Below are positions 1 through 43,869 of a stretch of 43,869 nucleotides of DNA, piece after piece. Source of the DNA: a virus; the UHGV virus genome UHGV-0210493, one strand, 5' to 3'. The notes under the pieces were generated by a model. The model made no database searches. It was not told where the DNA came from and saw only the letters and a program-made list of their open reading frames with translations. Each line of letters opens with the position of its first letter. Position 1 is the first letter of the stretch. The translations under genes were made by a program, and so were the position numbers.

Positions 1-15
1 ATAGATTTTCTTCAT
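1..15 (-). CDS. 5' end (MKKIY...) of a small membrane-protein ORF that runs off the window start; continues in-frame at 43702..43869 if the sequence is circular
   Basis: RC shows RBS AAGGAGGAG (plus 22-30), then ATG (plus 13-15), open to position 1. Confidence 0.4.
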
Positions 16-130
16 GCTGACTCCTCCTTGAAATACCGATCAATCAAAGCTAGTGCTTCTTCTTTTGTTGAGACGGTATGCTGCATTTTCGATCCACTAT
101 CTTCCTCAACTGATATAGTGACTGACTTAA

Positions 131-562
131 TCATTTCCCCAACTCCCCTACTTTTTGATCCGTATACTGCCGTAATTCGCTCACACGCTGTTCTAACTGT
201 TCCTTGTCGTTTTGCACTGTTGATAGTTGTTGGCGCAAGCTATCGGCTTCCTGTTGCTTTGTAGCGATCTCCTGTTGCTTTTGTTCGATTTCTCGTTGCT
301 TGGCTTCAATTTCCTTCTGCTTGTCCGATTTGATTTGTTCAATTTCAGCTTTCAACTGTTCTTGTGTGCGAGTGTTGTTGGATAGCTGCGATTCGAGTTC
401 TGACACACGTTGCGATTTGGTTTGTCCGTATTGTAGGACTGTGTTGAAGTTTGCCTTGATCGTGTCCAAATCTTGAAATGCGTTGCTTGCTGCGTAGCCG
501 ATAACGCCGCTACCTAGTGCTAGTCCGATGATTGCTGTTGTTTTTGCTAGTTTGTTTTTCAA
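131..562 (-). CDS. membrane-anchored coiled-coil protein (hypothetical)
   Basis: N-terminal hydrophobic segment followed by a long Q/E/K-rich heptad region; ORF track. Confidence 0.55.
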   Translation of the reverse strand: MKNKLAKTTAIIGLALGSGVIGYAASNAFQDLDTIKANFNTVLQYGQTKSQRVSELESQLSNNTRTQEQLKAEIEQIKSDKQKEIEAKQREIEQKQQEIATKQQEADSLRQQLSTVQNDKEQLEQRVSELRQYTDQKVGELGK

Positions 563-580
563 TGTGATTTCTCCTTTGGT

Positions 581-691
581 TTAATTTTTTTCATAATGAA
601 TCCCAACGTTTTCAATAACTAATTTCCCTGCTTCTGATTCAAATACAATTTTCTTCTTTCCGTTTTCCTCAAAGTATTTAACTGTTGCCAT
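581..691 (-). CDS. small hypothetical protein (36 aa)
   Basis: ATG preceded by GGAGGAAATAAT RBS; not in ORF track (<60 aa). Confidence 0.3.
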   Translation of the reverse strand: MATVKYFEENGKKKIVFESEAGKLVIENVGIHYEKN

Positions 692-715
692 ATTATTTCC
701 TCCTTCCGCGTGGGG

Positions 716-892
716 TTATTTGTCTAAATACAATTCCGACAAACCAAGCAAGTCGGCGATAAAATAAAGATGTTCTTTCGTCAAATTTTGAATGTCATGA
801 ACAGTTGCTGGTTTGCCATCAACTTTTATTCCCTTTGCTTCTGCGATTTCGATAGCAGCTTTCAAAGCGTCTTTTACGTTTTCGTGTTCCAT
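716..892 (-). CDS. small hypothetical protein (58 aa; start moved to internal Met)
   Basis: GAAGGAGGAG RBS precedes MEHENVK...; the upstream part of the track ORF lacks an RBS. Confidence 0.5.
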   Translation of the reverse strand: MEHENVKDALKAAIEIAEAKGIKVDGKPATVHDIQNLTKEHLYFIADLLGLSELYLDK

Positions 893-2128: not shown

Positions 2129-2157
2129 ACTATAACATGATTTAAAATCATATTCAA
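2129..2157 (-). promoter_or_regulatory. leftward promoter for cro-like gene (-35 TTGAAT, 17 bp, -10 TATAGT on minus strand), overlapping operator O2
   Basis: Hexamers and spacing read from the reverse complement. Confidence 0.5.
2137..2151. promoter_or_regulatory. operator O2: ATGATTT-A-AAATCAT
   Basis: 15-bp palindrome between the cro-like and cI-like genes. Confidence 0.6.
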
Positions 2158-2236
2158 GTAAAATATATGATTTATTGTCATATTTTTTTTATTACTATAT
2201 ATATGCCTTATTTAAAAAAATATTTTTCGTTTTAAC

Positions 2237-2264
2237 TTGATTTAAAATCATATTATGATATAAT
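2237..2264 (+). promoter_or_regulatory. rightward promoter for cI-like gene (-35 TTGATT, 16 bp, -10 TATAAT), overlapping operator O3 (2238..2252, TTGATTTAAAATCAT)
   Basis: Near-consensus sigma-A hexamers about 30 bp upstream of RBS AAAGGAGG and the ATG at 2293. Confidence 0.55.
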
Positions 2265-2292
2265 ATTCTTATCAAGAAAGGAGGTAATTTTA

Positions 2293-3006
2293 ATGGAAAG
2301 CATAGGTCAAAGAATTAGAAATTTGCGAGAAATGAAAAATATGACACAAACAGAATTATCTCAATCTTTAGGAATGAAAACTTACACAACTGTTTCAAAG
2401 TGGGAAAGTGATGATAATTTCCCCAAAGGAAGAGACTTAAAGAAATTATCTGAATTATTCGGGGTTAGCTCTGATTATCTTTTAGGTCTTAATACAAATA
2501 AAAATGTTACTTCAATTGAAACAATCTACAATCAATTAGAAAAACCAAGACAAACAAAAGTCTACAACTTTGCTGAACAGCAACTTGAAGAACAAAACAG
2601 TAAAGTGGTTCAATTCCCTGTTCAAAATAACCATGAAGAGGTGCAAGCTTACCTATCAGCTGGTACTGGTATTTTAAACTATTATGAAGCTGATAAAGAT
2701 ATAGCGGAAGTTCCTGCAGATGCACCAGAACATGATTGGATATTTAAAATTGTCGGCGATTCTATGAAGCCGTTGTTTGATACTGGTGATATCGTGTATG
2801 TGGATGAGTTCAAACAAGGCATAGATACTATACAAAACGGTAGAATTTATGTAGTTGAGGTTGACGGAGAAGCTTATATAAAGAAAGTCTATGTATACGA
2901 AGAAACAAAAACGCTTAGATTGGTTTCCCTTAACAAAGATTATATGGATTTGCTATTTAGATTTGAGGATTCGGATATTAAGTTTATTGGTCGTGTCATA
3001 ATTTGA
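2293..3006 (+). CDS. cI/LexA-like prophage repressor (N-terminal HTH_XRE, C-terminal S24 peptidase)
   Basis: N-terminal QTELSQSLGMKTYTTVSKWE HTH; C-terminal GDSM...K S24 serine/lysine dyad motifs. Confidence 0.85.
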   Translation: MESIGQRIRNLREMKNMTQTELSQSLGMKTYTTVSKWESDDNFPKGRDLKKLSELFGVSSDYLLGLNTNKNVTSIETIYNQLEKPRQTKVYNFAEQQLEEQNSKVVQFPVQNNHEEVQAYLSAGTGILNYYEADKDIAEVPADAPEHDWIFKIVGDSMKPLFDTGDIVYVDEFKQGIDTIQNGRIYVVEVDGEAYIKKVYVYEETKTLRLVSLNKDYMDLLFRFEDSDIKFIGRVII

Positions 3007-3655: not shown

Positions 3656-5056
3656 ATGAAAAAAGCGGGCTTATATATTCGAGTTTCCACTCCTCAACAA
3701 GAAAAAGAAGGCTACTCAATCGAAGCGCAAACGGAAAAACTCAACGCTTACGCAATAGCAAAAGATTATAAAGTGTTCAAGACCTATACAGATGCAGCCT
3801 TTTCTGGCGCTAAACTTGAACGGCCGGCGCTTAATGAAATGATCGAAGATATCGAAAACAATAAAATAGATGTCGTCATCGTTTACAAGCTTGACCGACT
3901 TTCTCGTAGCCAAAAGAACACTATGTATTTGATCGAAGATGTGTTTCTCAAAAATAATGTTGATTTCATCAGCATGCAAGAAAGTTTTGATACTACCACC
4001 TCTTTCGGTCGTGCAATGATCGGAATTCTTTCAGTTTTCGCCCAATTGGAGCGTGATAACATTACAGAACGCATGTCAATGGGGAAACTTGAACGTGTGA
4101 AACGTGGCTATTACATGGGTGGCGGTAATGTTCCATTTGGATATGAGTACAATCAAATTACAGGCGAATTAGAAATACAAGAAACACAAGCATTAGCTGT
4201 TAAGCGAATGTTTGAACTTTTTTTAAACGGACAAGCGATAAATAAGATTGTTTCTACATTGAAAAAAGAATTCCCTGTTTTTGAAGATAGCTTCATGGAC
4301 TCTACCGTCAGAAGAAGGCTTCAATCTCATTATTATTGCGGGAAACAGAAATATCAAAACAAAATATACGATGCTAAACACGAACCTATCGTTTCTACAA
4401 AAGACTTCAACAAAGCGCAGCGTTTAATTAGCAATAGACCTCACAGCAATGCGTTTAACCACAGTTATTTATTTTCGGGGCTCATTATATGCCACAAGTG
4501 CGGAAAGCCTTACAATGGATATGAGAGCGTTAGAACCGCCAACGGGAAAAAATATAAACATAAGTATTATCGTTGCTCGTGCAGGACTTACAAGCATAAG
4601 CAAAAATACGGTTGGGCTTGTTCAGGTAAATCTTATCGATGCGATTTTTTGGACGCAGCAATTATGAGTGAAATAAAAAAAAGAGCAGAAAATTCTAAGT
4701 TTGCATTAAAAGAAGATAATAACGAAGTAGATAATAAACCTATCATTAGAGAAATCGCCCGACTTAACGCTCAGCAATCAAAGCTATTAGATTTGTATCT
4801 ATCAGATAAAATATCCACAAATATCTTAGATAATAAAACCGATGAGCTTAAAGAGAAAATAGAAAAATTAGAATTACAGTTGAATCAGACGGTGAGTAAA
4901 AAAGATAAAGAAGAGTTTGAAAAATCATTAGAAGAGTTAGTTGATAAATTTGAAGAATTGGATTTTTCTACCAGACGGAGCTTGATAGAAAATATTATTG
5001 AGAAGATCGAGGTTGTTGACGATGAAATTACTATATACTTTTATGTGACCATTTAA
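3656..5056 (+). CDS. int: large serine recombinase (phage integrase)
   Basis: N-terminal resolvase catalytic domain (GLYIRVSTPQQ, active-site Ser), recombinase domain, Cys-rich zinc ribbon (CHKCG...CSC...C), C-terminal coiled coil. Confidence 0.9.
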   Translation: MKKAGLYIRVSTPQQEKEGYSIEAQTEKLNAYAIAKDYKVFKTYTDAAFSGAKLERPALNEMIEDIENNKIDVVIVYKLDRLSRSQKNTMYLIEDVFLKNNVDFISMQESFDTTTSFGRAMIGILSVFAQLERDNITERMSMGKLERVKRGYYMGGGNVPFGYEYNQITGELEIQETQALAVKRMFELFLNGQAINKIVSTLKKEFPVFEDSFMDSTVRRRLQSHYYCGKQKYQNKIYDAKHEPIVSTKDFNKAQRLISNRPHSNAFNHSYLFSGLIICHKCGKPYNGYESVRTANGKKYKHKYYRCSCRTYKHKQKYGWACSGKSYRCDFLDAAIMSEIKKRAENSKFALKEDNNEVDNKPIIREIARLNAQQSKLLDLYLSDKISTNILDNKTDELKEKIEKLELQLNQTVSKKDKEEFEKSLEELVDKFEELDFSTRRSLIENIIEKIEVVDDEITIYFYVTI

Positions 5057-5090
5057 GCAATCACTTGCATGTTTGGTTATTTGGACACGT

Positions 5091-5130
5091 AAAAAAGCCC
5101 CCTACTCAAAAGAGTAAGGGGTGTTTGTTT
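5091..5130 (+). terminator. rho-independent terminator downstream of int
   Basis: GCCCCCTACTC / GAGTAAGGGG hairpin followed by TGTTTGTTT. Confidence 0.5.
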
Positions 5131-5560: not shown

Positions 5561-5586
5561 TTACCACGGAAGCTTGTTGTTGTTCA
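5561..5586. repeat. 26-bp direct repeat copy 2 (encodes the endolysin C-terminus ...NNNKLPW*)
   Basis: Exact match to 5129..5154. Confidence 0.85.
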
Positions 5587-6481
5587 ATGCTACTTGCAAT
5601 GATTTGACCATGTTAGAAACAGGGCTGATAACTCCATCAACCGTTGTCTTCAAGGCTCGTTGCATAGCTTTAATCATTTCTGTACCGCACAACCCATCGA
5701 TCGCACCTTTGTATAAACCTTTCGCTTTCAACCTTTTCTGCCATTTACGAATCAACGTTGATCCTTTTAGCGTATTATCGAATTGCGCCGCATAAAGGTT
5801 CTTGTTGCACGCCTGCCGGTATTGGTGACTGATTTCATCATCTGGCGTAATCCCCTCATATTTCATTGCTTTATTGGCAGTGCTTGGTCCAAACATGCCG
5901 TCTTCTTGGATTTTATTGGTATTTGGTTTTACAGAAGGTGTACTAGGTTTGACTGTTGAATTTGATGATCCAGAATTATTGTTTGATGTGCTGTCTCCGT
6001 TGTAATATTTTTTGATTTGATCCACGAAATATTGTTTGATAGCTGCTACACCTTTTCCATGCAAATCCCACGCTCTGTGAGGACACGATGTAGAACTCAA
6101 CTCACGATGTAACGGAAACACGGCTGAAGCGGGATTCAAACCGTATTTTTTACATAACTCGGCAGCTAACTTAAATGCTTTTTGCTCATTTGCAAGATAC
6201 GTGGATTCATTCCCCATGGATTGACATACTTCAATCCCCAAGTAATTAGCATTGCCTTTGCTGTTACCTGTATGCCAAGCCTTGTTGCTATCCTTCTCAG
6301 CTTGGTATGTTCCATCGCTAGCAACATAGTAATGAGCAAATCCTAAAGAAGGAGTATGGCTTTCTAGCCAGTTTTTATAAAATGCAGCAGTCGCACCTTG
6401 GCTTCCGGCATCATTATGCAAAACGATTGCTGTCGGGTTTGATCCACGAGCACCCGCAATTCCTGAATAACTTACTACCAT
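5561..6481 (-). CDS. endolysin: N-acetylmuramoyl-L-alanine amidase (Amidase_2/PGRP) with C-terminal peptidoglycan-binding domain
   Basis: Amidase_2-like catalytic region (HNDAGS..., CPHRAW); C-terminal PG_binding_1-like repeat (GLYKGAIDGLCGTEMIKA). Confidence 0.85.
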   Translation of the reverse strand: MVVSYSGIAGARGSNPTAIVLHNDAGSQGATAAFYKNWLESHTPSLGFAHYYVASDGTYQAEKDSNKAWHTGNSKGNANYLGIEVCQSMGNESTYLANEQKAFKLAAELCKKYGLNPASAVFPLHRELSSTSCPHRAWDLHGKGVAAIKQYFVDQIKKYYNGDSTSNNNSGSSNSTVKPSTPSVKPNTNKIQEDGMFGPSTANKAMKYEGITPDDEISHQYRQACNKNLYAAQFDNTLKGSTLIRKWQKRLKAKGLYKGAIDGLCGTEMIKAMQRALKTTVDGVISPVSNMVKSLQVALNNNKLPW

Positions 6482-6790
6482 TTACTCCACCTCCACTAAT
6501 TTGTGATTTGGCAATGACAACATTTGACCTTCTAGTTCAATCTTGGTAAAGATTTTATTCGATCTTAAAACTTTGTATTTTCCTGTTAAGTAAAAGAAAT
6601 CACCAACTTGAAATCCGTCAAATTCTTTAGGTAGTCCATCCGAGGTAACCTCTTTAAAACCATTTTCTTCGTATCGATCGACCGTTTCTGTTTCCCCTTT
6701 TTCGAAGGGATCTAACTGGACATATTCTTCTCCAACTTCTTTGACTTGTAACTTTCCGAGTACAGTTACATATGAGCCTTCTTTAAACAT
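6482..6790 (-). CDS. hypothetical beta-rich protein between holin and endolysin
   Basis: ORF track; stop abuts the amidase start. Confidence 0.5.
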   Translation of the reverse strand: MFKEGSYVTVLGKLQVKEVGEEYVQLDPFEKGETETVDRYEENGFKEVTSDGLPKEFDGFQVGDFFYLTGKYKVLRSNKIFTKIELEGQMLSLPNHKLVEVE

Positions 6791-6831
6791 TATTCTTCCT
6801 CCTTCAGATATAGAAAAGGAGCAGCCAATGG

Positions 6832-7068
6832 CTACTCCTTCTTTTCTGTGAACTCTTGACCATCGCCATAATCAGTTGAATTGTAATTATTGCTAGATAC
6901 ACCAAGTACTACACCAGCAAATGCGGTGACCAATGAGATCAGCCCCACAATTTTCGTTGCGTCAAAACCATATAAAGTTGCGATTCCAGCAATCAAGACT
7001 GCTAATGCTGGCGACCATTGTGTAATCACCGTTTTTGCAAAATCATATTGTTTATTAGTTAATTTCAT
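6832..7068 (-). CDS. holin
   Basis: 78 aa; two hydrophobic TM segments; charged C-terminal tail; immediately upstream of the endolysin cassette. Confidence 0.7.
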   Translation of the reverse strand: MKLTNKQYDFAKTVITQWSPALAVLIAGIATLYGFDATKIVGLISLVTAFAGVVLGVSSNNYNSTDYGDGQEFTEKKE

Positions 7069-16032: not shown

Positions 16033-18747
16033 CTAAAATTGCATGTTTAAGTTAATGCCATTGCCTTGAGCCTGACTAATGTCATCAACAAATTTAGAAA
16101 ACTCACTATCTCCAATTCGAACATTGAAAACAGCTGGCTTGTTATTGGTTCCATAGCTGACTTCATGTTGCACCTGTGTTTGAATTTGGCTATTAACTGC
16201 CGAAATTCGGTTTCCAATGTCCATGTTTGATGCTTTATCAGCTAATGTAGAGGATGCTTTGTCCACGTATTTTGAACCGTCAAGCATACCTTCTGCTAAA
16301 CCTTGCGAAGTGAACATACCTAATTCAGCCATCACACGTGAAGGAGAATGGATATTCAATACATCTTTGATTTTTCCGGTAATAGATCCAGCAACATCTT
16401 TGACTGCATTAACTACATCATCAATCTTGCTTCTGATTCCATTTACTAATCCATCAATGATATCTTTCCCGATTTGCAATAGGTCAATTTGTCTGATAGT
16501 GTCAAAGGTTTCTTTTACTCTATCTACGGCATTTGAAACACCGGTTTTCATGTCTTCCCACGCTTGCGCTGCGCCGTCTACAATGCTCTTCGCTGTATTA
16601 ATGACAGCATTCTTGGTATTTTCCCAAGCAGTCGTGACACCGTCTTTGATCGCATTCCACATGTTGATTGTGTTTGTCTTAATAGACTCCCACAGATCAA
16701 TAAAGAATTGCTTCACGCTATTCCAAGTGTCGATCGCCCCTTGTTTCATGCTTTCCCATGTTTCAGATAACCATGTTTTTAAGGCGTTCCAAGCGTCAAT
16801 TGTGCCTTGTTTGATATTGGCCCATGTTTCAACAAAGAAAGCTACAATACTGTTAAATGTATCAATCGCAATCGTTTGAATCGTTGTCCATATATAAGCT
16901 AGTGCTGCTTTAATACCATTCCAGATATTTAAGAACGCCATCTGAGTATTAGTTAAGAAGCTATCAAAAATCGCTTGAATGGAAGCCCAGATGTTCGCTG
17001 CTGCAGTTTGAATGTTGTTCCATACGCCTATCATGTTATTCTTAGCTTCTTCCCAGCCACCTGAGATTAAAGAAGTCACGAATAACACTGGAGCTAGAAT
17101 AACATTTTTCATAATTTCAAATATCTGACCAGCGATCTTCACTAAATTTGTCCAAAGTGTTTTCAGGAAAAAGCTCATATGGATAAACGCATTTCGAACA
17201 CCGTACACAAGCGTTCCGAAACGGCTCATGATTCCATCTGCAATACCTTTAACGATAGAAGTAACTGTTGATTTAATCCCGTTCCATAAGTCTGAGAACC
17301 ACTGTGTGATCCCATCCCAAACCGAAACGATATTATCTACGCCATTACTAAAAGCTTGCTTTGTCCCTTGCCACATATCACTAGCTGAATCTTTGATACC
17401 TTGCCATAGGTCTGCAAACCATTGCTTGGTATTCTGCCATCCCTTTTTGACGCTATCTACTGCTTGTTTACTCCCTTCAATCAAACCATCCCATGCATTT
17501 GAAAAGAATTCCGTCATTCCATTCCAAGCAGAAACGATCCAATCAACAGCAGCGCCAACAACACTTTGAATTCCTTCCCAAAGACCAATCCAGAAATTTC
17601 TAAAGCCTTCGCTTGTATTCCAAAGATAGATGAATCCTGCTACAAGAGCGATAACCGCCGCTATAACTAGTCCGATTGGGTTTAAGTTCATTAGGACGTT
17701 CATCATTTTTTGAGCGCCATTGTATAGCTCAACTGCTTTTCTGGCAGTACCCATGACACCTTGGTAGATACTTATATATCCTACTACTGCCATGATTAGC
17801 GGTAAGAAAGGTTTAATCGTGTCCCACAGAGTTGCCAAAAAGCTAATTGCCGGTGGAATGCTGTCAGTGATAGCTTTGAAAGCTACGTTTACCGCTCCTT
17901 TGATCTTGTCAAAGTTTTCAGCAATCGATCCAAGCCCAGCGTCTTGCATTCCTTCATCAATCGCTGTGATAACATTGGCCAAACCTTTTACAACAGCTGT
18001 CTTGATGTTTGCAAAGGAAGTCCTGATACCAGCCGAGTTCTTTTGAGCTAATTCAGCAAAACCGCCGACACCTTCGTTCAGCTCGATTAAGCGACTGTTA
18101 AAATCATCAAAAGTAATGTCGCCTTTTTTCAGAGCAGCATATAAGTCATTCGCTGAGTTGACACCTTGATCACTAAAGGATTTCGATACTTTATCCATCG
18201 CAATAGGCATGGTTTCAAGTAAAGAGCGCCAAGACTGAAGATCGACTTCTCCTTTTGAGAGCATTTGTTGGTATTGTTGCGCCCCACGACTTGCATCAGC
18301 TGCAGAAGCACCACTGGCCAAGAAAGCATTGTTTAAGGCTACTGCTGTGTCTGTCCCTTTTTGCAAATCACCAGTTGAAATAGCTAGCTGTTGAGCGCTA
18401 GATACGATTTCATCTAAACTTGTTGGCAATCCGTCTATTCCGTCTGTCAGTTTGTTCATTGACTTGTCGACTTCTTCGGCGGAATAACCTAACGCTTGCA
18501 TAACAACCGGGTATTTGTTCAATGTGTCGAAACGATCAATCGCACCGCCTAATGAACTAGTAACTAAGCCGATAGCTGAATCCACTAATTTAAAAACCCC
18601 GATACCTTTGGCGATATCGAGGATAGAAGTATTCGTTTTTTGAGTGCTGCTATCTAAGTTGTTCATCGAACTATCAGCATTCTTCATGGTAGAAGAAAAA
18701 TTCTTGTCGACAGCCGAAAGAATCGCTTCAACGCTATATGATTCCAT
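16033..18747 (-). CDS. tail tape measure protein
   Basis: 904 aa; alpha-helical with W/F-periodic repeats; follows the chaperone pair. Confidence 0.85.
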   Translation of the reverse strand: MESYSVEAILSAVDKNFSSTMKNADSSMNNLDSSTQKTNTSILDIAKGIGVFKLVDSAIGLVTSSLGGAIDRFDTLNKYPVVMQALGYSAEEVDKSMNKLTDGIDGLPTSLDEIVSSAQQLAISTGDLQKGTDTAVALNNAFLASGASAADASRGAQQYQQMLSKGEVDLQSWRSLLETMPIAMDKVSKSFSDQGVNSANDLYAALKKGDITFDDFNSRLIELNEGVGGFAELAQKNSAGIRTSFANIKTAVVKGLANVITAIDEGMQDAGLGSIAENFDKIKGAVNVAFKAITDSIPPAISFLATLWDTIKPFLPLIMAVVGYISIYQGVMGTARKAVELYNGAQKMMNVLMNLNPIGLVIAAVIALVAGFIYLWNTSEGFRNFWIGLWEGIQSVVGAAVDWIVSAWNGMTEFFSNAWDGLIEGSKQAVDSVKKGWQNTKQWFADLWQGIKDSASDMWQGTKQAFSNGVDNIVSVWDGITQWFSDLWNGIKSTVTSIVKGIADGIMSRFGTLVYGVRNAFIHMSFFLKTLWTNLVKIAGQIFEIMKNVILAPVLFVTSLISGGWEEAKNNMIGVWNNIQTAAANIWASIQAIFDSFLTNTQMAFLNIWNGIKAALAYIWTTIQTIAIDTFNSIVAFFVETWANIKQGTIDAWNALKTWLSETWESMKQGAIDTWNSVKQFFIDLWESIKTNTINMWNAIKDGVTTAWENTKNAVINTAKSIVDGAAQAWEDMKTGVSNAVDRVKETFDTIRQIDLLQIGKDIIDGLVNGIRSKIDDVVNAVKDVAGSITGKIKDVLNIHSPSRVMAELGMFTSQGLAEGMLDGSKYVDKASSTLADKASNMDIGNRISAVNSQIQTQVQHEVSYGTNNKPAVFNVRIGDSEFSKFVDDISQAQGNGINLNMQF

Positions 18748-26182: not shown

Positions 26183-27731
26183 ACACGCCAGAACCAGATT
26201 GTTTCTTCAATCGCTTCAACTCTTCTTCAAACGGAACGCCAGTTAATCGTTCAGCCATTTCACACAATGTTTGATCTGATACGATGCCGACCATTCCAGC
26301 GATTACGCTCATGATTTCTTCGTCTGATTGCGGCACATTCGGCGTAAATTGAATTTGTATCTCGTTTACTTTGTTGTATAGCTGCTCTTGTTGCTTTTCA
26401 TCCGAAACAAAAAAGGCTTTGACTGTATCAATCAAGCCTTGTGGTTTATTCAATTCATCTTTGATGCTCCAAGAGTGTGTAAGCAACCGCAGACGGCGCA
26501 TAATGGCTTTCTTGACCATGCGTTCCTTGTTCTTACGATCGTTGTCTGAACCCCATCCTTTGAAACGGAATCCGATACCTGACTGGTTGGACCCGATGTT
26601 CTCGTCAGTAAAATCAATAAGAGATGTGAAGCGTAAGATATCAGCAACTGTCCGGCTGTCGTTAGCTTCCATTCCTGCAACGTCATACTCTTTTTTTAAA
26701 TAGAAAGCGTCTGGTTCGGAACCAGCTATGCTACCTTCATAAATCTTCTTGTCGCCTAATACAAGCGTTCTAGCTTGCATCATAGCTTGAAGCACTTCCA
26801 TTGGACTATTCTTGCCTGTTGGATCAACAGCGGTGTCAGGATTCCCTTTAATCACCAAGTAGGCTTCTGATGAATCTTGTTGGAAATTCGCCATTTCCGA
26901 GCGTGAAAGGTCGTATGCATCAATGGAATCCATTACATGCTCAAAATCACTTGTGCGCTCTTCGTTGTTTGTCCATTCATTGATCTGCACAGTGTCAAAA
27001 TAGCTTTGAACTGCCCCGTTTTCATCCAGTGTGGCATTTTCCAAATCATCATCTTTAGCTGTGAAGTAATAGTTGTATCCACAGTTTGTGTATAACTCGA
27101 TCCTAGTGAATGACTTATCCAAAAATTTCTCAACGAAGTAATGTACGCCGCAAATCGAGTTTCTGTCTTTTGTGTTGTCGTAAATCACAAATGTTTGCTC
27201 CGCATCAAACTTAGCTATTGTTTCTTTGCCGTATTCGTCACGTCCAACCCATTCATAAGCACGACCTAAGCCAAAGGCATCTCGGCTCATCAACTGATTA
27301 TGGTAGTCCTCGTTAGATTCACTAGCAAACCGATTAATACGTTCGACAATAACCTTATCGCCGTTATAACTAATCGGATTACCTAACAAGACACCTTGTT
27401 TAAACGACACAATAAAGTTAGCGAAATCGCTCGCTATGCGGTTGTCTGCTCTGCCATCTGGCTTGTTTGGACGCCGCTTAATGTTATTGTCTGCATTCAG
27501 ATATCGCTTTAGCTCTTTTAATCTAGGTACTTGTCTTTCACGATGATGCTTGATAAAGCCAACAATCATTTTCCACATATCTTCATGCTTGAAGTCAATA
27601 AACTCGCTGACCTCTCCTGTCTGCTGATCTAACATGTCGATTTTCGGCAACTGACTAACTGGTACCTTATAGACAAGGTTAGCTTCTTCATCAAATCGCT
27701 TTTTACCTAGAAGCTGAATATTCTGTTCCAC
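26112..27731 (-). CDS. portal protein (SPP1 gp6-like)
   Basis: 539 aa directly downstream of TerL. Confidence 0.85.
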   Translation of the reverse strand: MEQNIQLLGKKRFDEEANLVYKVPVSQLPKIDMLDQQTGEVSEFIDFKHEDMWKMIVGFIKHHRERQVPRLKELKRYLNADNNIKRRPNKPDGRADNRIASDFANFIVSFKQGVLLGNPISYNGDKVIVERINRFASESNEDYHNQLMSRDAFGLGRAYEWVGRDEYGKETIAKFDAEQTFVIYDNTKDRNSICGVHYFVEKFLDKSFTRIELYTNCGYNYYFTAKDDDLENATLDENGAVQSYFDTVQINEWTNNEERTSDFEHVMDSIDAYDLSRSEMANFQQDSSEAYLVIKGNPDTAVDPTGKNSPMEVLQAMMQARTLVLGDKKIYEGSIAGSEPDAFYLKKEYDVAGMEANDSRTVADILRFTSLIDFTDENIGSNQSGIGFRFKGWGSDNDRKNKERMVKKAIMRRLRLLTHSWSIKDELNKPQGLIDTVKAFFVSDEKQQEQLYNKVNEIQIQFTPNVPQSDEEIMSVIAGMVGIVSDQTLCEMAERLTGVPFEEELKRLKKQSGSGVFDSDKETDTEVEEDEQKDDEAST

Positions 27732-27741
27732 TGTATCACCT

Positions 27742-29154
27742 CTACAATCCTAGTTTTTTGAATGTGTCGATCGTCTTCATGACATCTATTTTTTCTGTTG
27801 TGTTCATGCTCATCGTTTCGGCGATGCCTGTTGTAGCATCTGGAGCATCGTCATGTTTGTTCTTTCCTTCTCGCTGGTATGTAGTCATTGCCTTGTAGTA
27901 ATCAGGAAACCTTGTTCTCCAATCACTCGGCATCCGTACATATTGTTCAACCCAATGGCTGTTGGAATAGATTCTCGCTTCTTTATTGGCACTTTGAAAG
28001 AAATCGGATATTGCAGCTGCACATTTCCCTTTTACTTTCTCTCTTACGGAACGAGCAAAAGACCGACCGCCGTTGTTGCGCTCGATACGTGATGTATTCA
28101 CTTTGAAGTTAATCAATTGATTTGCAACTGCGCTCTCCGTGTATTCCATTGGCTGTTGCGTATAGATGACATCTAAAACGTCCTGATAGCCATCTAGCGT
28201 TTCTCCCCAAACAATCGAACAAAGGTAGTCCTTACCAGTATCGGCAGTATCGCAATAATGCCAAATCTTCTTATAGTTAGATCTATTGCTATAAGTCTTG
28301 AACTCTCCGTACAATCTCCCTTTAATATCGATAGGCTCTTGTTGGTAGTTTGCGCTAGCGATGTCGGCACCCATTGTTTTAACTTTACGCTGGTAATCCT
28401 CAAAAGAAAGGACATCTTCACAAAGCATCCGACCGTTCTTTTCATCATATGCTTGAAAGTTAATGTGCTTAACCTTATATCCACTAAGTGGTAGTTCCTT
28501 CAATGCTCTACCTGCCAAATCATTGCTATGCCATCTAGTCATGTTGATAATAATCTTACCGTTACTCTCAAGACGGGATAGCATAGTATTTACAAACCAT
28601 TCCCAATGTTTATCCAAAACTGCAGCGTTGTTTGCTTCATCTGCATTCTTGATTACGTCATCAATGATGATGATATCTGCACCAAAACCAGTAGCTGTAC
28701 CAGTAGGCGATGTAGCCAGGTAGTTATTATAGCCATCTTCCAAACTCCAAAGATTCATTGCGCCATCGCCATATTTGATTTTTGCGTCGAATATATCGGC
28801 GTACACTATCATATCTTTGTCGGCTTTTATCTCTTGGATCGTGTTCCTCACATTCTTGGAAAATACAGTTGATAGAGTCTCATTATACGAACCAGTCATA
28901 ATCTTTTTTGTATGATCGTTACCTAGCACCCATTCAACAAATCGACCAAGCGTCAAAGATTTTCCGTGTCTGGGAGGCATATTAAGCACAAGCACGTCAT
29001 GTTCATTATCATCAAGAAACGACTGGAACTCTCCGCAAACAGAAATGAGGTACTCTCTATCGGCTTTATAGAACGCAGGCATAATCAAATGGCAATAATC
29101 GAAAAAATATCTCTTGGCCAATTCTATCTTGGCACCTAATGCAATTTTATCCAT
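27742..29154 (-). CDS. terL: terminase large subunit
   Basis: Walker A-like GKS region; C-terminal nuclease-like acidic residues; start at ATG MDKIAL (track's longer start is TTG). Confidence 0.85.
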   Translation of the reverse strand: MDKIALGAKIELAKRYFFDYCHLIMPAFYKADREYLISVCGEFQSFLDDNEHDVLVLNMPPRHGKSLTLGRFVEWVLGNDHTKKIMTGSYNETLSTVFSKNVRNTIQEIKADKDMIVYADIFDAKIKYGDGAMNLWSLEDGYNNYLATSPTGTATGFGADIIIIDDVIKNADEANNAAVLDKHWEWFVNTMLSRLESNGKIIINMTRWHSNDLAGRALKELPLSGYKVKHINFQAYDEKNGRMLCEDVLSFEDYQRKVKTMGADIASANYQQEPIDIKGRLYGEFKTYSNRSNYKKIWHYCDTADTGKDYLCSIVWGETLDGYQDVLDVIYTQQPMEYTESAVANQLINFKVNTSRIERNNGGRSFARSVREKVKGKCAAAISDFFQSANKEARIYSNSHWVEQYVRMPSDWRTRFPDYYKAMTTYQREGKNKHDDAPDATTGIAETMSMNTTEKIDVMKTIDTFKKLGL

Positions 29155-29608
29155 CCCGACTCGCCAACTTCCGCAATTCCTCTTCGGAAAGATTAGCAAA
29201 AGGATTGCTTACCGTCATGTTGCCAGATACCTCGGTTTCTTTTTTATCACGCCATTCATCTGGCTTGCGATTTTTCAACCAGAATATTTGAGCAGTAGTA
29301 TCAGGCGCTTGCTGTTTAGTGACAAATTTTGTTACTCTCATGCCATCTTCGGTCAGCTCTTGGGTAGTTTCTTTGAATTCGTATCCTAATGCTCGTTTAA
29401 GCAATGCATTCTCAACTTGCCGATCAACTACTTCTTTTCCTCTTTTTAAGGACTCCGATAACACCGAGTATTTCTTTTTCCACTCATGAAGAGTTGACTC
29501 AGCAATATTCATGTTATGTGCTACTTGTTTATCGGTAAGGCCATCACGAGCCCAACCTTCGATTTTCAATAGCCCTTCTTCAGTTAGCCACTCTGTGTAT
29601 TTTGCCAT
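29147..29608 (-). CDS. terS: terminase small subunit
   Basis: N-terminal HTH (GLTDKQVAHNMNIAESTLHEW); overlaps the terL start. Confidence 0.7.
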   Translation of the reverse strand: MAKYTEWLTEEGLLKIEGWARDGLTDKQVAHNMNIAESTLHEWKKKYSVLSESLKRGKEVVDRQVENALLKRALGYEFKETTQELTEDGMRVTKFVTKQQAPDTTAQIFWLKNRKPDEWRDKKETEVSGNMTVSNPFANLSEEELRKLASRDG

Positions 29609-31765: not shown

Positions 31766-31838
31766 TTGACGTGACCGGACTCGAACCGGCGACCTCTTGG
31801 CTATTCACCAAACGCTCTGGCCGCTGAGCTACACGCCA
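31766..31838 (-). tRNA. tRNA with atypical anticodon loop (nominal anticodon AAU with G33; assignment uncertain)
   Basis: Cloverleaf by hand: acceptor TGGCGTG/CACGTCA, D-arm GCTC-AGCGGCCA-GAGC, T-arm GCCGG-TTCGAGT-CCGGT, anticodon stem TTTGG/CCAAG with loop TGAATAG; no encoded CCA. Confidence 0.7.
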
Positions 31839-31942: not shown

Positions 31943-32034
31943 TGTCACTGGCAAGGATTTGCACCTTGCATGGCACCTAAGTCCCTAAAATCGGAATGCC
32001 TTTCTGAAGCGTCTACCTATTCCGCCACAGTGAC
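31943..32034 (-). ncRNA. type-II (Leu-like) tRNA-like element / degenerate tRNA
   Basis: Perfect 7-bp acceptor GTCACTG/CAGTGAC; U8 G9; D-arm GCG-GAATAGGTAGA-CGC almost identical to bacterial tRNA-Leu; T-arm-like GCAAGG-TGCAAAT-CCTTGC; no canonical anticodon arm found. Confidence 0.4.
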
Positions 32035-37950: not shown

Positions 37951-40278
37951 CTAATTAAACAAATTTCGAATTCCAATATTTTCGTAAGGCTGACTTTCCT
38001 CAATTAAATCTATACCTTCGTACATAATTCCTTGGTTAGTTTTCTTTTTGTTAAATTTGTTACTCATTTCTTTACCGAATTTCGTACTATTCATTTCGTA
38101 CTGACCATTTTCATTGGCCCAAGTTTTGTACGCTTGATAAAAATCTTTAGCTTTTACTCGCTTATTTATCCCTCTCTCACAACAATCATTGATAAATGCT
38201 GCAGTTACGTCCATTTCTTCTCGATATTCTTTTGAAGCATCCTCAACGATTTTTGGTCGTTTCAAACCTTCTCTCTGCCACATCAGACAACCTTCTACTA
38301 TCCAATTCAAAATTCCGACTGATTCACGCTTAAGTTTGTATTTAAGGTTCTTGTCTTTCTTGTGATCAGGAATCTGTATGGTAAAAGGGATTAAATTCAT
38401 TCTTCGCCATATACCGTCATCCGTACCTCGTATGATCGGTTTGTGGTTAGTTGCTAACCAAAGCTTGAATTCTGGTGTAAATTCAAATTCTTTCCCGTAT
38501 AAAAAGCGAGCAGTTACTTTGTCTCCGCCAGTCAACTGCTTGACCAAACCCTCATCCATTCTCACACCTTCATTGGGTTCGGATGATGTTACTAATCGAG
38601 CGCCTTTCAAACGTGCAATATCTGTATTAGCTCCACCATTTGCTTTTCTAACCATAATCGTGTCTGCTTGCATGTTTGTCGCATAGCTGCCCATGATATA
38701 TGAGATAGTATCTAGAAACACAGATTTACCATTGCTACCAGCGCCGAACAGCACGAACATACTCTGCTCTCTTGTGGACCCAGTGAGTGAGTAGCCAACT
38801 GCCTTTTGAACATATCTAATCAACTCTTGGTCGTTATCAAATATTTGATTTAAAAATTCAGTCCATTGCGGCGCATCGATTTTATCTGTATATTCAATAT
38901 TTGCTATTCGTGTAAACTTTTTGTCTATGTTGTGTTCGTGCAATACTCCGCTAATCAAATCTAAATATCCATTTTGTGTATTTAGAAGTGTTGTGTCGCT
39001 ATCAAATTCATCTGGTAAAACCGATACACGGTGCATGATTTGTTCTCTCATAGCTTTCTTTGCAGAATTTCCACGGGAACGCTTGATGTGTTTCCTAAAG
39101 GCTTCTTCAATTTTTTCTGGATCTTCACAGTCGGCAGGGATATAAACTTTCTCATTTTTCATCATGTCAACTGTGGTATCAATCATTTTTGATATTTCAC
39201 CTGTATCATCAATCTTCCAACTCTTGCCATCGTAGAAATAAAACTCTTTATTAATGTATGAGTATCTGACTAAGGTTCCATACACATCCATAAATCTTTC
39301 TGCATTCCCGGTGTCATCATAGGAGTAGAATTTGTCTTCTTTCTTTTCTTCAAACTCTTTAATGAAAATTCTGAAACCATGCGACTGGCTAGGCGTATAG
39401 GTATTTTCACATTCATGGATTGCTTTGTTTAATAAGTTTCCGCCGTATGTTGAATTTGGTGGTCTACGTTCGTCATACTTTTGTCTAAATAAAGACGAAT
39501 CTCTGAAAATGCTGTCCATTTTTTCAAAGTCTCTACCGGTCCAGAATGCTAACATGTTTGCAAAAGCAATATCTGCTTCGGATTGAGAGTCGTAAAAAGC
39601 TTCCCAGCCGCCTTCCATAAAAACCTTGAATTTTGCGCCCTGTTTGCTTTCGTATGCTTTTTGGACTATTTCTGATTCTGATAGGTCTATTTTCGATTCT
39701 GAGACGTTTTGATTGTTAAATCGGACAATCTTATCATCTCCAATATATCGGTTGTATAGCAGTTTTAGAGTGGTTTCTGATGGTTCAATGACTTGGTTAT
39801 ATTTGCGATCGACAGTATTGCCTGTCATAACGAAAAATCTACCCGAATCATACATTTCAACATTGCCTTTTCTACGCCTGTGACCAGGCAGCTTTCCTTT
39901 ACAGATAATGTGGATACCATTGCCAGATTGAGAATATTCAGCATAAGATTTAATCGATGTTACAAACTCGTACATCATATTTGTTTCAATATCGCCTTGT
40001 AAATATCGTTGAATTTCACCTTCGATATTATCAATGTCAATTCCGAAGTAAGGTTTTTTGAAATAAAAACCTAATCCATTACAGTTATATTTTTCTATTG
40101 CAGAGAGTGCGGTCTGATAATCAGACCACGTACTCTCATCATTTGATTTACCATTGTTTCCAGTGTGTGGATCGACTGGTATTTTGGTGTGTTTTTTTCT
40201 TTCTTCGTTCCATACCAATCGATATACACACCACTGTTTTTGCTGCTTTAGTTCTTCTGGAATGTGTTCATATGCCAC
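37951..40278 (-). CDS. bifunctional primase-polymerase / D5-type NTPase (P4-alpha-like replication protein)
   Basis: N-terminal prim-pol domain; central D5_N/primase-C region; Walker A LFGAGSNGKS; GTG start with AAGGGAG RBS. Confidence 0.85.
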   Translation of the reverse strand: MAYEHIPEELKQQKQWCVYRLVWNEERKKHTKIPVDPHTGNNGKSNDESTWSDYQTALSAIEKYNCNGLGFYFKKPYFGIDIDNIEGEIQRYLQGDIETNMMYEFVTSIKSYAEYSQSGNGIHIICKGKLPGHRRRKGNVEMYDSGRFFVMTGNTVDRKYNQVIEPSETTLKLLYNRYIGDDKIVRFNNQNVSESKIDLSESEIVQKAYESKQGAKFKVFMEGGWEAFYDSQSEADIAFANMLAFWTGRDFEKMDSIFRDSSLFRQKYDERRPPNSTYGGNLLNKAIHECENTYTPSQSHGFRIFIKEFEEKKEDKFYSYDDTGNAERFMDVYGTLVRYSYINKEFYFYDGKSWKIDDTGEISKMIDTTVDMMKNEKVYIPADCEDPEKIEEAFRKHIKRSRGNSAKKAMREQIMHRVSVLPDEFDSDTTLLNTQNGYLDLISGVLHEHNIDKKFTRIANIEYTDKIDAPQWTEFLNQIFDNDQELIRYVQKAVGYSLTGSTREQSMFVLFGAGSNGKSVFLDTISYIMGSYATNMQADTIMVRKANGGANTDIARLKGARLVTSSEPNEGVRMDEGLVKQLTGGDKVTARFLYGKEFEFTPEFKLWLATNHKPIIRGTDDGIWRRMNLIPFTIQIPDHKKDKNLKYKLKRESVGILNWIVEGCLMWQREGLKRPKIVEDASKEYREEMDVTAAFINDCCERGINKRVKAKDFYQAYKTWANENGQYEMNSTKFGKEMSNKFNKKKTNQGIMYEGIDLIEESQPYENIGIRNLFN

Positions 40279-40298
40279 ACACTTTCAACTCCCTTTAA

Positions 40299-40808
40299 TT
40301 AGAATGGCAAATCATCATCATTGATCTCGATGCTGCTGCCTGAGAAATCATTTGGTTTACTGCTATCTTTGAATTGGTGTTGAATATTTGGGAAAGCCGA
40401 CTGTTCCCACCGTTTTACATTCAAGTTGTCATAGATTACGCCTTGTGCATTTGGCTCAGATTTTTCATTTTTAACCGTTACTTTCGCTGTCTTCAAAACG
40501 AAGTCTTGCATTAAATCATCAATGCTTGAATAGGATTTGTTTTCCTGTAGTTGGAATGCCCAACCGAGGGTGTTGAACATTTGGAAATTGTATTTGCCAG
40601 TATCTTTCTTCTTCCAAATCTTATGAAAAATGTGTTGGTTTTGATGTTTTTGTTGCACGTCGTTACGAATGATTAAGTCTAACTCCATATACTCAGAGCC
40701 GCCTTTAGTTGCGTCCTCTTTCACGATATTTACGATCACTTCATAAACTCCGTCTGTAATTCCGCCGCCTTCAAATTTGTCGTTAAAGTCTAAGTTAAAT
40801 CCTGTCAT
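40299..40808 (-). CDS. DUF669-like putative ssDNA-binding protein with SSB-type acidic tail (…INDDDLPF)
   Basis: C-terminal DDDLPF motif; position between Sak4-like ATPase/helicase and primase. Confidence 0.5.
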   Translation of the reverse strand: MTGFNLDFNDKFEGGGITDGVYEVIVNIVKEDATKGGSEYMELDLIIRNDVQQKHQNQHIFHKIWKKKDTGKYNFQMFNTLGWAFQLQENKSYSSIDDLMQDFVLKTAKVTVKNEKSEPNAQGVIYDNLNVKRWEQSAFPNIQHQFKDSSKPNDFSGSSIEINDDDLPF

Positions 40809-40831
40809 AGTTAATTACCTCTTTCTGTTTT

Positions 40832-42172
40832 TTATAGTAGGTTTAGTCTTTTGGCTTGAAAGAATGCCCAACCTTTTTTATAACCTCTAGCATCAGCCAT
40901 TTTGTATAAATCGCTGACACTCTCAGCTTCTTCTGGTTCCATTGCTGCATACTTTCCTGTATCTAGATTGATTTTTATTTCTTGTAGTTCCGCACTTTCG
41001 ATTGTTTCAAGGTTTGCAGAACGCTCTTCTTTCGGTATCTCATGCCCACAATAAGGACAAATATTTCCAACTTCACTTGCATAGGTGCCGAAGCAATTAG
41101 GGCATTCCTTGATAGGAATAACGTCCTCTTTCTTTCGGCTTTTTTTACTTGCCAAGCTCCATTGCCTTGGCATATCCGGCAAACCATGCTCGTTCACGTT
41201 CCCGACATGATCAATGATTGTAGATATTTTATTTGGCTTGTAGCGCATCCCTCTCATGGCTTGCTGGATGAATAGAGAGAGCGACTTGGTGGGCCTTAGC
41301 ATTATCACCGTTGAGCAATCTGGTACATCGAAGCCCTCTCCGATCAAATCAACATTTGTCAGAATTTGAATATCGTGATTACGAAACTTTTCAATAATCA
41401 AATCACGTTCCTGTTTATTCGTTTTCCCGTCAATATGTGCCGCTTGGTATCCAGCTTCAATAAATAAATCTCTTGTCTTTTCACTTGATTCAATACTGTG
41501 GCAATATACGATCGCTTGCTCACCTTCCGCTAGTTTCTTGTAGTGTTTGATAACGTCACCGTATATAGCTTTTTGTTCCAATGCTTTATCTATACTGCCT
41601 TTTGAGAATTCAGACATAGAATTCATTTTTAAAACTGAAGTATCGATCAACGCTGGTGCATAGTATTTAAATGGAGTTAGTCGTTTATTTTCAATCAACC
41701 ATTTAACTGATACTCCCTCTATCAACAAATCGTTGACATCTCCCAAACCGCTACCGTTTAATCTGACTGGTGTTGCGGTAAAGCCTATTCGTTGGACATC
41801 TGAATAATATTCATAGATTTTCTTATAACTACTTGCCAAGCTATGGTGATTTTCATCCGTTATGATCAGCTTAGGTTTCTTTATTTTTCCTAGCTTTCTC
41901 ACGATCGTTTGAACCATTCCGAAAACAACAAATCTCATATCCACGCCATGTGTTTCAAAAGTATTCCTTATTTGGTCAATTAGTTCTTTCCTATGAACCA
42001 AGAACAAAACGTGATTGCCTTTTAAAGTCGTCTTACGAGCGATCTCTGCAATCACTACACTTTTGCCCGAACCGCATGGCGAAACAATACAAGGAGCACG
42101 ATAGCCATTGATAAAAGACTCTCTAGCCCTCTTTATCAAATCTTCCTGATAGTCGTATAATTCAAAGGTCAA
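40832..42172 (-). CDS. SF2 DEAD/DEAH-box helicase with C-terminal zinc ribbon
   Basis: Walker A SPCGSGKS; DENHH (DExH); helicase C motifs; CPNC...CPYC. Confidence 0.8.
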   Translation of the reverse strand: MTFELYDYQEDLIKRARESFINGYRAPCIVSPCGSGKSVVIAEIARKTTLKGNHVLFLVHRKELIDQIRNTFETHGVDMRFVVFGMVQTIVRKLGKIKKPKLIITDENHHSLASSYKKIYEYYSDVQRIGFTATPVRLNGSGLGDVNDLLIEGVSVKWLIENKRLTPFKYYAPALIDTSVLKMNSMSEFSKGSIDKALEQKAIYGDVIKHYKKLAEGEQAIVYCHSIESSEKTRDLFIEAGYQAAHIDGKTNKQERDLIIEKFRNHDIQILTNVDLIGEGFDVPDCSTVIMLRPTKSLSLFIQQAMRGMRYKPNKISTIIDHVGNVNEHGLPDMPRQWSLASKKSRKKEDVIPIKECPNCFGTYASEVGNICPYCGHEIPKEERSANLETIESAELQEIKINLDTGKYAAMEPEEAESVSDLYKMADARGYKKGWAFFQAKRLNLL

Positions 42173-42849
42173 TCATCATCACTTCCGATTTTGAAGATAT
42201 TTTCCTGAAGGCAACCTTCTCTGTGGTCCAATTGATTTTTTGCGAATGTTCCATTTGATTTTTGAAGAATGAATCCACGTTGCTTGGTTTCAGGATTTCG
42301 AACCAGCCTAGCCACCAATGGAATGATTCCCATAATATGATTGACTACTTTCTCTCTGATGTCTGGCAAGAATTGATTGTATAGTTGCCCGCTTTCTAAT
42401 TGGATTTGTCTGGTCGTTTCCCAAGCCGTATAAACTACATTCGTATTTAATGCATTGAATGTGGATATCAGTTCAATCAAGTGTGTATCAAACACCCCAT
42501 AATGCTGAAGCTCTGGTTGACCTGATTTTGTGTGTTTGCCTTTTTCCATAAACCAGAGTTTTTGATAGTGGCTTAGATTATCCAAAACAATATTGTCATA
42601 GTCATCAATGTGAGCTTTCGCATATCCGTAAAACTCGATCATTTCTTTTGCTACATTTGTTGGATCAATTTCCACAACATTGATATTCTCAATACCAGCT
42701 AACACTCTTGATGTACCATCAATATCTAAAACGAGCGTTTTACCTTCTAAATATTTAAGTGTTGTTGTTTTTCCTGCTCCCGGCTCTGCGTAAATCATTA
42801 TTTTGAAACGATCACTTTTCTTCATTTCACTTGCTTTTTGGATTTTCAT
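42169..42849 (-). CDS. AAA_24 family ATPase (Sak4-like single-strand annealing / recombination ATPase)
   Basis: KIMIYAEPGAGKTT Walker A near the N-terminus; 226 aa size typical of Sak4. Confidence 0.7.
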   Translation of the reverse strand: MKIQKASEMKKSDRFKIMIYAEPGAGKTTTLKYLEGKTLVLDIDGTSRVLAGIENINVVEIDPTNVAKEMIEFYGYAKAHIDDYDNIVLDNLSHYQKLWFMEKGKHTKSGQPELQHYGVFDTHLIELISTFNALNTNVVYTAWETTRQIQLESGQLYNQFLPDIREKVVNHIMGIIPLVARLVRNPETKQRGFILQKSNGTFAKNQLDHREGCLQENIFKIGSDDD

Positions 42850-43319
42850 CAGCGTATCCTCAAACTTTCCGATTGCTTGATTTCGACACCAGGAACATCT
42901 TCTTCTGCTTTCTTGATTGCTGTTTTATCAAAATCGATAGTTATTTTTTTGAATTTATCTGGTATCAATGTTTCGTCAATAATCTCGACGCTAGGTTGGT
43001 TTTTTTGAATGTTGAAACTAAATAAATCTGTTTTAAATTTCGTTTTGCCAATTTCTACCATTGCATTTTGTAAGCTTAATTTCATTCGCTTGACGTTATT
43101 GTCGACTGCTTGTTTACGCTCTTTCATTCGCTTGATTTCTTCATCAAATGCTTTGCTTGAAGCTTCTTGATTGCGGATCAACTTAGCATAACCGTCTGCT
43201 TTTTCTTCAATAGCTAGGTCAATTGATTCTAACGTGTCAATAATCGCTGTATTTTCAGAATCATATTCCAACATATCTGCGACCTGGTTAAATGCACCAG
43301 TTAATTCATATAGTTTCAC
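42849..43319 (-). CDS. Sipho_Gp157-family protein
   Basis: MKLYELTGAF... start and size typical of Gp157 proteins found next to Sak4. Confidence 0.55.
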   Translation of the reverse strand: MKLYELTGAFNQVADMLEYDSENTAIIDTLESIDLAIEEKADGYAKLIRNQEASSKAFDEEIKRMKERKQAVDNNVKRMKLSLQNAMVEIGKTKFKTDLFSFNIQKNQPSVEIIDETLIPDKFKKITIDFDKTAIKKAEEDVPGVEIKQSESLRIR

Positions 43320-43556
43320 TCAAAGGACCTCCTTCAATTTCTCAATTACTTGCTCTAACCCTTGAATCAGTTCTTCTCGACCAAATTCAGCTGATTCTTC
43401 GATAGTTTCAAATTGCGTGCGGACATCCTCGTCGTCGCTGTCCTGATAAACACCTACTCGATCGTTCTTCTTATCAATATCGAAGACGATTGATCCATAA
43501 GGTTTGTATGCGTCAATTAGATGAATACGCCCGATTGTGTCAATAGCTATTCTCAT
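43320..43556 (-). CDS. hypothetical protein
   Basis: ORF track. Confidence 0.45.
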   Translation of the reverse strand: MRIAIDTIGRIHLIDAYKPYGSIVFDIDKKNDRVGVYQDSDDEDVRTQFETIEESAEFGREELIQGLEQVIEKLKEVL

Positions 43557-43591
43557 GGTATAATCTCCTTAGATGAATTTTTGTTAAGACT

Positions 43592-43705
43592 CTATGCTTG
43601 CCGGCCGGAGTCTTTTTTTGCGTCCATTTTTGCTTGTGCTTCATAGTAAATTTCTTTCCAGTCAAGTGTGCGATAGTATAGATCAAGTACTTCTGCTCTG
43701 GTCAT
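43592..43705 (-). CDS. small hypothetical protein (37 aa)
   Basis: ATG overlaps the upstream stop (ATGA coupling). Confidence 0.3.
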   Translation of the reverse strand: MTRAEVLDLYYRTLDWKEIYYEAQAKMDAKKDSGRQA

Positions 43706-43869
43706 TTCTTCACCGTCCTTGATCGTAATTCAAATACTGCTTCGTCATAGATCATTAGCAGTAACATTGCGACACAAGGGAATCCGATGACTAGCCACGT
43801 TGGTGGTTCTGATGAAATCAATGCTCCCAATGCGAAGATGACAAGAACAAATGTTGTGCGTCTGATCCA
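43702..43869 (-). CDS. C-terminal part of a small membrane protein whose 5' end lies beyond the window end (matches 1..15 if circular)
   Basis: Open frame to the window edge; hydrophobic TFVLVIFALGALI...GFPCVAMLLLMIY. Confidence 0.45.
   Translation of the reverse strand, partial: WIRRTTFVLVIFALGALISSEPPTWLVIGFPCVAMLLLMIYDEAVFELRSRTVKK

Follow-up and report, generated by a model that had tools for sequence, protein, structure and literature searches.

UHGV-0210493 is a circular assembly of a temperate phage, probably of Enterococcus, opened inside a small early gene

Genes at the ends of the window

We analysed UHGV-0210493, a viral DNA sequence of 43,869 nucleotides (nt) that is called the window throughout, and we focus here on a small gene that is divided between its two ends. 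On the minus strand, positions 15 to 1 read ATG AAG AAA ATC TAT, with the motif AAGGAGG a few nt upstream, and positions 43869 to 43702 keep this frame and end at a TGA stop. The original prediction had joined the two parts into one membrane protein of 60 amino acids (aa) with two transmembrane segments, and had taken the window for a complete, circularly permuted phage genome. On re-reading, the ends did join in frame on the minus strand; the joined product is MKKIYWIRRTTFVLVIFALGALISSEPPTWLVIGFPCVAMLLLMIYDEAVFELRSRTVKK (60 aa), and its two hydrophobic stretches (approximately residues 10-26 and 29-46 on the Kyte-Doolittle scale) agree with the predicted transmembrane segments. The features at the ends are:

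1..15, minus strand: 5' end of the split 60-aa gene (ATG and four codons), the ATG overlapping the stop of the upstream 40-aa open reading frame (ORF) as ATGA
43702..43869, minus strand: 3' part of the split membrane-protein gene (55 codons and TGA), the stop overlapping the ATG of a 37-aa ORF
12..562, minus strand: early ORFs of 143 aa (562-131) and 40 aa (134-12), linked to the split gene by ATGA; phrog_5105

The four small ORFs, of 143 aa (562-131), 40 aa (134-12), 60 aa (split) and 37 aa (43705-43592), thus form a chain linked by ATGA overlaps of stop and start codons. Since this chain spans the 43869/1 junction, the window is cut in the middle of an operon. The 60-aa product has weak matches to phrog_1270/1592, both of unknown function, and intact homologues of it with 89-95% identity are present in the protein database. 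From base composition alone, the chance of such an open frame, in the right register and of this length, is about 0.005; the figure is not the real issue for this frame, because the join itself is proven, as described below. The split ORF is a real and conserved gene.

Closure of the circle

An exact-protein look-up of the window's integrase led to the Logan contig SRR8653138_13 (43,899 nt), which we compared with the whole window as four overlapping pieces. The run behind this contig may belong to the infant virome of Liang 2020 (PRJNA524703), going by no more than the ENA record name LIAN20-2_SAMN11031285. The contig equals the window base for base, rotated to start at position 16130, with a second copy of positions 16130-16159 (30 nt) added. 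The 400-mer over the 43869/1 junction was found exactly within it, and a single 60-aa gene was called over the join (positions 6178-6360 of the retrieved piece L007). The place where the source assembly closes is:

16130..16159, no strand: true closure point of the source assembly, 30 nt present at both contig ends, inside the intact tape-measure ORF

This 30-mer occurs once in the window, the tape-measure frame at the closure point is intact (904 codons), and no exact repeat of at least 31 nt, which could confuse a k=31 graph, was found anywhere in the window. Logan assemblies use k=31. A 30-nt overlap of the contig ends is the usual sign of the k-1 trace that a circular path leaves in a de Bruijn assembly at this k. 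Such contigs have a k-1 overlap and an arbitrary start, and SRR8653138_13 does not differ from this textbook case in any respect. Since the window is this contig after trimming and rotation, the in-frame join of the window's ends is not an independent proof of circularity or of pac packaging.

Support from other samples was found at both points. The original prediction had proposed looking for contigs across the junction, and six Logan/ENA contigs from other runs cross 43869/1 in one-piece alignments with approximately 97% identity, as does one IMG/VR contig (96.7% identity over 869 nt). In four of the six Logan/ENA contigs the 60-aa gene was called, with 56-57 of its 60 residues identical to the joined ORF, and the 143-aa and 40-aa ORFs are kept beside the 60-aa gene in contigs of other runs. 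Eight IMG/VR contigs from other samples span 16130-16159 in unbroken alignments with approximately 95% identity. More distant relatives show the same arrangement: the homologues of 131-577 and 42847-43635 adjoin each other and are co-oriented in Enterococcus gallinarum phage phiEG37K, in one ENA contig and in prophages of two NCBI assemblies (on contigs of 0.31 and 3.2 Mb), with only a variable cassette of small ORFs between them. The GC skew is unbroken across the window ends. The ends of the window are adjacent in the real replicon.

The stretch with the split gene (43606-43869 and 1-5) is itself a variable cassette slot between conserved flanks. In phiEG37K the slot holds 1,027 nt (positions 6286-7312 of piece L001) with ORFs of 254 aa and 45 aa, and in the prophages of the two NCBI assemblies it holds approximately 1 kb of other small ORFs (positions 2399-3414 of piece L010).

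Terminal redundancy, also proposed as a check, was searched for and none was found in the window; when its first and last 2 kb were compared, no direct match exceeded 16 nt, and the match of that length does not lie at the ends. As expected of a complete, circularly closed assembly, the window has adjacent ends, its source contig closes on itself with support from outside, and its module set is complete; the ORFs examined include no host genes. Several points weigh against this assignment. The window and SRR8653138_13 come from the same assembly or the same reads, and their agreement is not independent proof of closure; the closure therefore rests on the 30-nt overlap together with the non-identical relatives. 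Closure and termini were judged from assembled sequences. Among the GTDB species representatives, we found no close prophage of the whole genome and no match to the exact 28-mer at the junction, and the best integrase match there was 67%, in E. faecalis, without other synteny.

Taking these points together with the results presented below, the window is very probably the complete genome of an uncultivated temperate siphovirus of the E. gallinarum/casseliflavus group, in its excised form with an intact attP, assembled as a closed circle and likely packaged by a headful mechanism. The circle would have been written out linearly from an arbitrary point within a small early gene, and its ends would join in frame for that reason. 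The claim of a complete phage genome holds, as all modules of a temperate siphovirus were found and the circle is closed. The claim of circular permutation is true of the record, in that rotating one linear record gives the other; for the virion DNA, it would depend on the packaging type.

Packaging type

Two genes encode the terminase:

27742..29154, minus strand: terminase large subunit (TerL), 470 aa from the ATG at 29154, 83% identical to TP901-1 TerL
29147..29608, minus strand: terminase small subunit (TerS), with a helix-turn-helix (HTH) N-terminus; only its last 29 residues resemble TP901-1 TerS

Over 449 aa, the TerL of the window shares 83% identity with its counterpart in Lactococcus phage TP901-1, for which Christiansen et al. 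reportedly demonstrated headful packaging and a pac region in 1994. The window's TerL is also approximately 80% identical to the TerLs of the Streptococcus thermophilus phages 9873 and CHPC926, which have structural modules of the P335 type (PMC5311409). By Pfam, TerL belongs to Terminase_6N/6C, and the portal is SPP1 Gp6-like; a search of TerL against solved structures by sequence gave no match. For terminases of the TP901-1 type, pac-dependent packaging is expected (PMC9865981). No HNH domain was found in the ORFs of 104, 107 and 411 aa scanned upstream of terS; the 71-aa ORF near terS (30207-30422) was compared with PHROGs only. TerL thus falls in the headful clade, with no cos-associated HNH in the ORFs scanned beside the terminase genes. 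From the terminase type, pac-initiated headful packaging appears likely. Concatemers would be packaged from pac by the headful mechanism, giving virion DNA that is terminally redundant and circularly permuted and that would assemble naturally as a circle.

Alternatively, the circular assembly could be real and the virion DNA could have fixed ends, either cos ends or short direct terminal repeats; concatemers, ends joined by ligation or DNA replicating in the sample would then account for the circle. In favour of this explanation, physical termini are not visible in the sequence, and close relatives by early region have a TerL of the HK97 type accompanied by HNH, a combination typical of cos. 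In these relatives, which share the early region, the HNH gene is carried at the position scanned here; HNH accompanies cos packaging in S. thermophilus phages (PMC5601072). Packaging modules have therefore been exchanged within the group. The TerS, too, is a point against headful packaging of the TP901-1 type, being unlike TP901-1 TerS outside the C-terminal tail. On the other side stand the high identity of TerL to a terminase of a pac phage, the combination of Terminase_6N/6C with an SPP1-like portal and the lack of HNH in the ORFs scanned beside the terminase genes; in addition, the 30-nt overlap of the contig ends has the length k-1 and does not represent a terminal repeat of biological origin. 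Altogether, we consider fixed ends improbable.

Since TerS shows no relation to TP901-1 TerS in its DNA-binding part, the TP901-1 pac site cannot be transferred to the window. A TerS made of a conserved TerL-docking tail and another DNA-recognition domain, and hence a different pac site, would fit the pattern of similarity.

Closest known phages and mosaicism

The genome is matched by no known phage over more than a part of its length, and three phages resemble different parts of it. TP901-1 (P335 group, temperate siphovirus, pac-type) shares with the window the TerL type, an SPP1-like portal, a BppU_N baseplate protein, a large serine integrase and the order TerS-TerL-portal-head-tail-lysis. 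It differs in host genus, in its portal (24% identical), in a TerS that is unrelated outside the C-terminal 29 residues, and in its late activator Alt, in place of which the window has a 137-aa ORF without similarity to Alt. Furthermore, the replication and lysogeny modules of the window have no nucleotide-level match in TP901-1, and the genome sizes differ (43.9 kb for the window versus 37.7 kb). The E. gallinarum phage phiEG37K (LC625742.1) shares the early and replication region that flanks the join, at approximately 92% nt identity and in the same order and orientation. In contrast to the window, it carries 1,027 nt with other ORFs in place of the 269 nt around the join in which the 60-aa gene lies, its integrase gene has 1,146 nt instead of 1,401 nt and its genome is 37 kb long; no nucleotide match was found outside the early and replication region. 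Finally, the antibiotic-induced Enterococcus hirae phage EH-TP1 (PQ571301.1) is collinear with the window over the packaging, head and tail module, at approximately 81-83% nt identity, whereas no nucleotide match was found outside this module. We also considered the metagenomic "Vespunovirus" phages ct40X5 and ctCNj1 as a possible identity of the window, and rejected them since both their lengths and the sizes of their tape measures differ.

Such a mosaic could also arise by misassembly, either as a chimera of two co-occurring Enterococcus phages or through false closure at a repeat. The uneven similarities would be compatible with this: the early region is approximately 92% identical to phiEG37K, and the structural region approximately 81-83% identical to EH-TP1 and approximately 95% to IMG/VR contigs. 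However, an ENA scaffold from another sample (SHAO19-1_SAMEA5618116; 43,685 nt) is 99.7% identical to the window over 21624-31672. This scaffold covers the joint between early and late modules, which shows that the genome is not chimeric. Moreover, one IMG/VR contig (L021) links the lysis and tail genes, independent contigs cross both closure points, the window has no exact repeat long enough for false closure in the k=31 graph, and the ORFs at the joins are intact. A misassembled circle is thus very improbable.

Integrase, attachment site and host

The integrase gene and the attachment site have the following coordinates:

3656..5056, plus strand: large serine integrase with Resolvase, Recombinase and zinc-ribbon domains
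5050..5100, no strand: attP region, with the phage/host crossover at approximately 5070-5076

The integrase has 466 aa and matches PF00239, PF07508 and PF13408, which fits the class of large serine integrases (Resolvase, recombinase and zinc ribbon in approximately 450-500 aa). Its sequence is exactly that of GenBank DAG72997.1, annotated as "MAG TPA: integrase [Caudoviricetes sp.]". Within its cluster at 90% identity, the members with NCBI names are assigned to E. gallinarum, E. casseliflavus and E. innesii, several of them lying on contigs of 0.1-3.4 Mb.

A related prophage in E. gallinarum (CP050816.1) has 97% similarity to the window through the end of the integrase gene. The similarity stops at window position 5075, 19 nt past the stop codon; beyond this boundary CP050816.1 continues with an aldo/keto-reductase gene and then the pur operon, whereas the window continues with phage DNA, namely a 78-aa ORF and the endolysin gene. 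In other samples, short contigs break off within one base of the 5075 boundary, as expected at a branch of the assembly graph. Since the homology to the prophage stops at 5075 and the window goes on with phage DNA, the window has an intact attP and represents the excised form. The attP thus adjoins the integrase gene, and the integrated relative has its phage/host boundary at the same place. The serine integrase directs integration into the 3' end of the host aldo/keto-reductase gene next to purD. In CP050816.1, the last approximately seven codons and the stop of this gene (positions 11398-12264 of piece L017) come from phage DNA. The host assignment derives from the members of the integrase cluster, which would place the host in the Enterococcus gallinarum/casseliflavus group.

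The same boundary refutes the idea that the window is a prophage cut in silico from a bacterial chromosome, with att sites or arbitrary cuts at its ends and bacterial DNA beyond. Its temperate character (an integrase and a cI-type repressor, with integrated relatives in Enterococcus chromosomes) would allow for this, but its ends lie within one gene of the early operon, at a distance of approximately 5 kb from the site of integration, phage DNA flanks the attP region (5050-5100) on either side where the related prophage turns to host DNA, and the source contig contains the exact junction and closes on itself without bacterial flank, which makes a cut-out prophage scarcely credible.

The 78-aa ORF (5253-5489) lies between attP and the 3' end of the endolysin gene, flanked by the two copies of a direct repeat of 36 nt (5119-5154 and 5551-5586; 92% identical). 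This arrangement suggests a small cassette that may have been inserted by recombination at a duplicated 3' end of the lysin gene.

Genome organisation

The order of the modules agrees with a circle. On the minus strand, starting from the cI/cro switch, it runs through cro, the Rha antirepressor, small early ORFs, the replication module and ORFs of the late region, and then through a tRNA cassette, TerS, TerL, portal, head, tail and holin/endolysin to attP; from the other side, attP is reached by the plus-strand genes of the serine integrase and cI. That the gene order closes only as a circle, as had been argued in the original prediction, is borne out by the cro and Rha genes on the minus strand heading towards position 1 and by the replication genes, 43319 to 37951, on the same strand. 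The genes of the switch and lysogeny region are:

1054-1803, minus strand: Rha/KilAC antirepressor (domain search)
1885-2097, minus strand: cro-like HTH repressor (domain search)
2133..2266, no strand: cI/cro intergenic switch with two copies of a 34-nt operator-like repeat containing the palindrome ATGATTTAAAATCAT (repeat family D2)
2293..3006, plus strand: cI-type repressor with HTH_3 and a Peptidase_S24 self-cleavage domain (domain search)

From their position between the two repressor genes, the repeats at 2133..2266 are putative operators. Between cI and the integrase gene lies an ORF of 185 aa (3065-3622, plus strand) with weak coiled-coil, membrane and LysM-like matches only. Its location is typical of an exclusion or defence gene expressed by the prophage, and in relatives the slot is taken by a 147-aa ORF or by a 168-aa bPH_3/SHOCT protein.

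The lysis module (5561..7068) and the tail module (10073..19971) are separated by an acyltransferase gene on the opposite strand:

5561-6481, minus strand: Amidase_2 endolysin
6832-7068, minus strand: Dp-1-type holin, with a 102-aa ORF between it and the endolysin
9066..10031, plus strand: Acyl_transf_3 acyltransferase, inside the tail/lysis region
10073-12379, minus strand: receptor-binding protein with BppU_N and beta-helix
12382-15243, minus strand: Tal with lysozyme and M23 domains
15240-16022, minus strand: Dit
16033-18747, minus strand: tape measure
18764-19422, minus strand: tail chaperones
19465-19971, minus strand: tail tube

The acyltransferase gene lies in a stretch of low GC content (0.305). 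It is probably a lysogenic-conversion moron, whose product may modify cell-wall polysaccharide.

The head module (21623..27731) and the replication module (37951..43556) contain:

21623-22630, minus strand: major capsid protein
23020-23643, minus strand: DUF4355 scaffold
24261-25214, minus strand: MuF-like minor head protein
26112-27731, minus strand: SPP1 Gp6-like portal
37951-40278, minus strand: D5-type primase-polymerase
40299-40808, minus strand: DUF669
40832-42172, minus strand: SF2 helicase
42169-42849, minus strand: AAA_24
42849-43319, minus strand: Sipho_Gp157
43320-43556, minus strand: 78-aa ORF

Exact-protein look-ups for 34.4-35.8 kb gave no match, probably because of differing starts in gene calls; this region was recovered through a 91-aa ORF.

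A tRNA gene and a tRNA-like element

The tRNA cassette between the late-region ORFs and terS contains two elements:

31766..31838, minus strand: tRNA-Ile(AAT) with G instead of U at position 33 (anticodon loop UGAAUAG)
31943..32034, minus strand: tRNA-like element of 92 nt, unannotated, 105 nt upstream of tRNA-Ile(AAT)

The tRNA-Ile(AAT) lacks the near-universal U33 and would be an unusual decoder for a bacterial system. In the tRNA-like element, a perfect 7-bp acceptor stem, D-like arm and T arm surround a central domain that is not that of a tRNA, with no recognisable anticodon arm. It was missed by Rfam and by standard ARAGORN, and was called at a relaxed ARAGORN threshold only. A copy with 97.8% identity, also unannotated, lies at the start of the record of phage EG-TP1, and elements with the same 5' and 3' ends and other central parts (52, 92, 130 or 160 nt in total) were found in phage phiFL2A, in Schiekvirus phage 113 and in eight IMG/VR contigs. 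Most copies have a genuine tRNA gene no more than a few hundred nt away; in seven of the 11 copies examined, it starts 105-121 nt downstream. In the closest relative of the window (SHAO19-1_SAMEA5618116; piece L029), the tRNA cassette (31673-32008) is replaced in its entirety by other DNA. These elements could be decayed tRNA genes. That they represent a functional phage RNA not described before, such as a decoy or substitute countering host defences that target tRNAs, is a tentative and rather unlikely reading.

Implications

The circularity of the window is real but ordinary, the sequence being a complete circular assembly that was opened at an arbitrary position. The window is to be handled as a circle and the 60-aa gene annotated across its ends; the natural origin of coordinates is attP (approximately 5075) or terS, not position 1. 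The join of the ends says nothing on packaging. The genome is of value for cataloguing and for host assignment; it opens no new question, and its integrase is already in GenBank (DAG72997.1). It adds one more mosaic temperate Enterococcus phage, which combines packaging of the TP901-1 type, an early and replication region approximately 92% identical to that of phiEG37K and a serine integrase that targets the host aldo/keto-reductase gene.

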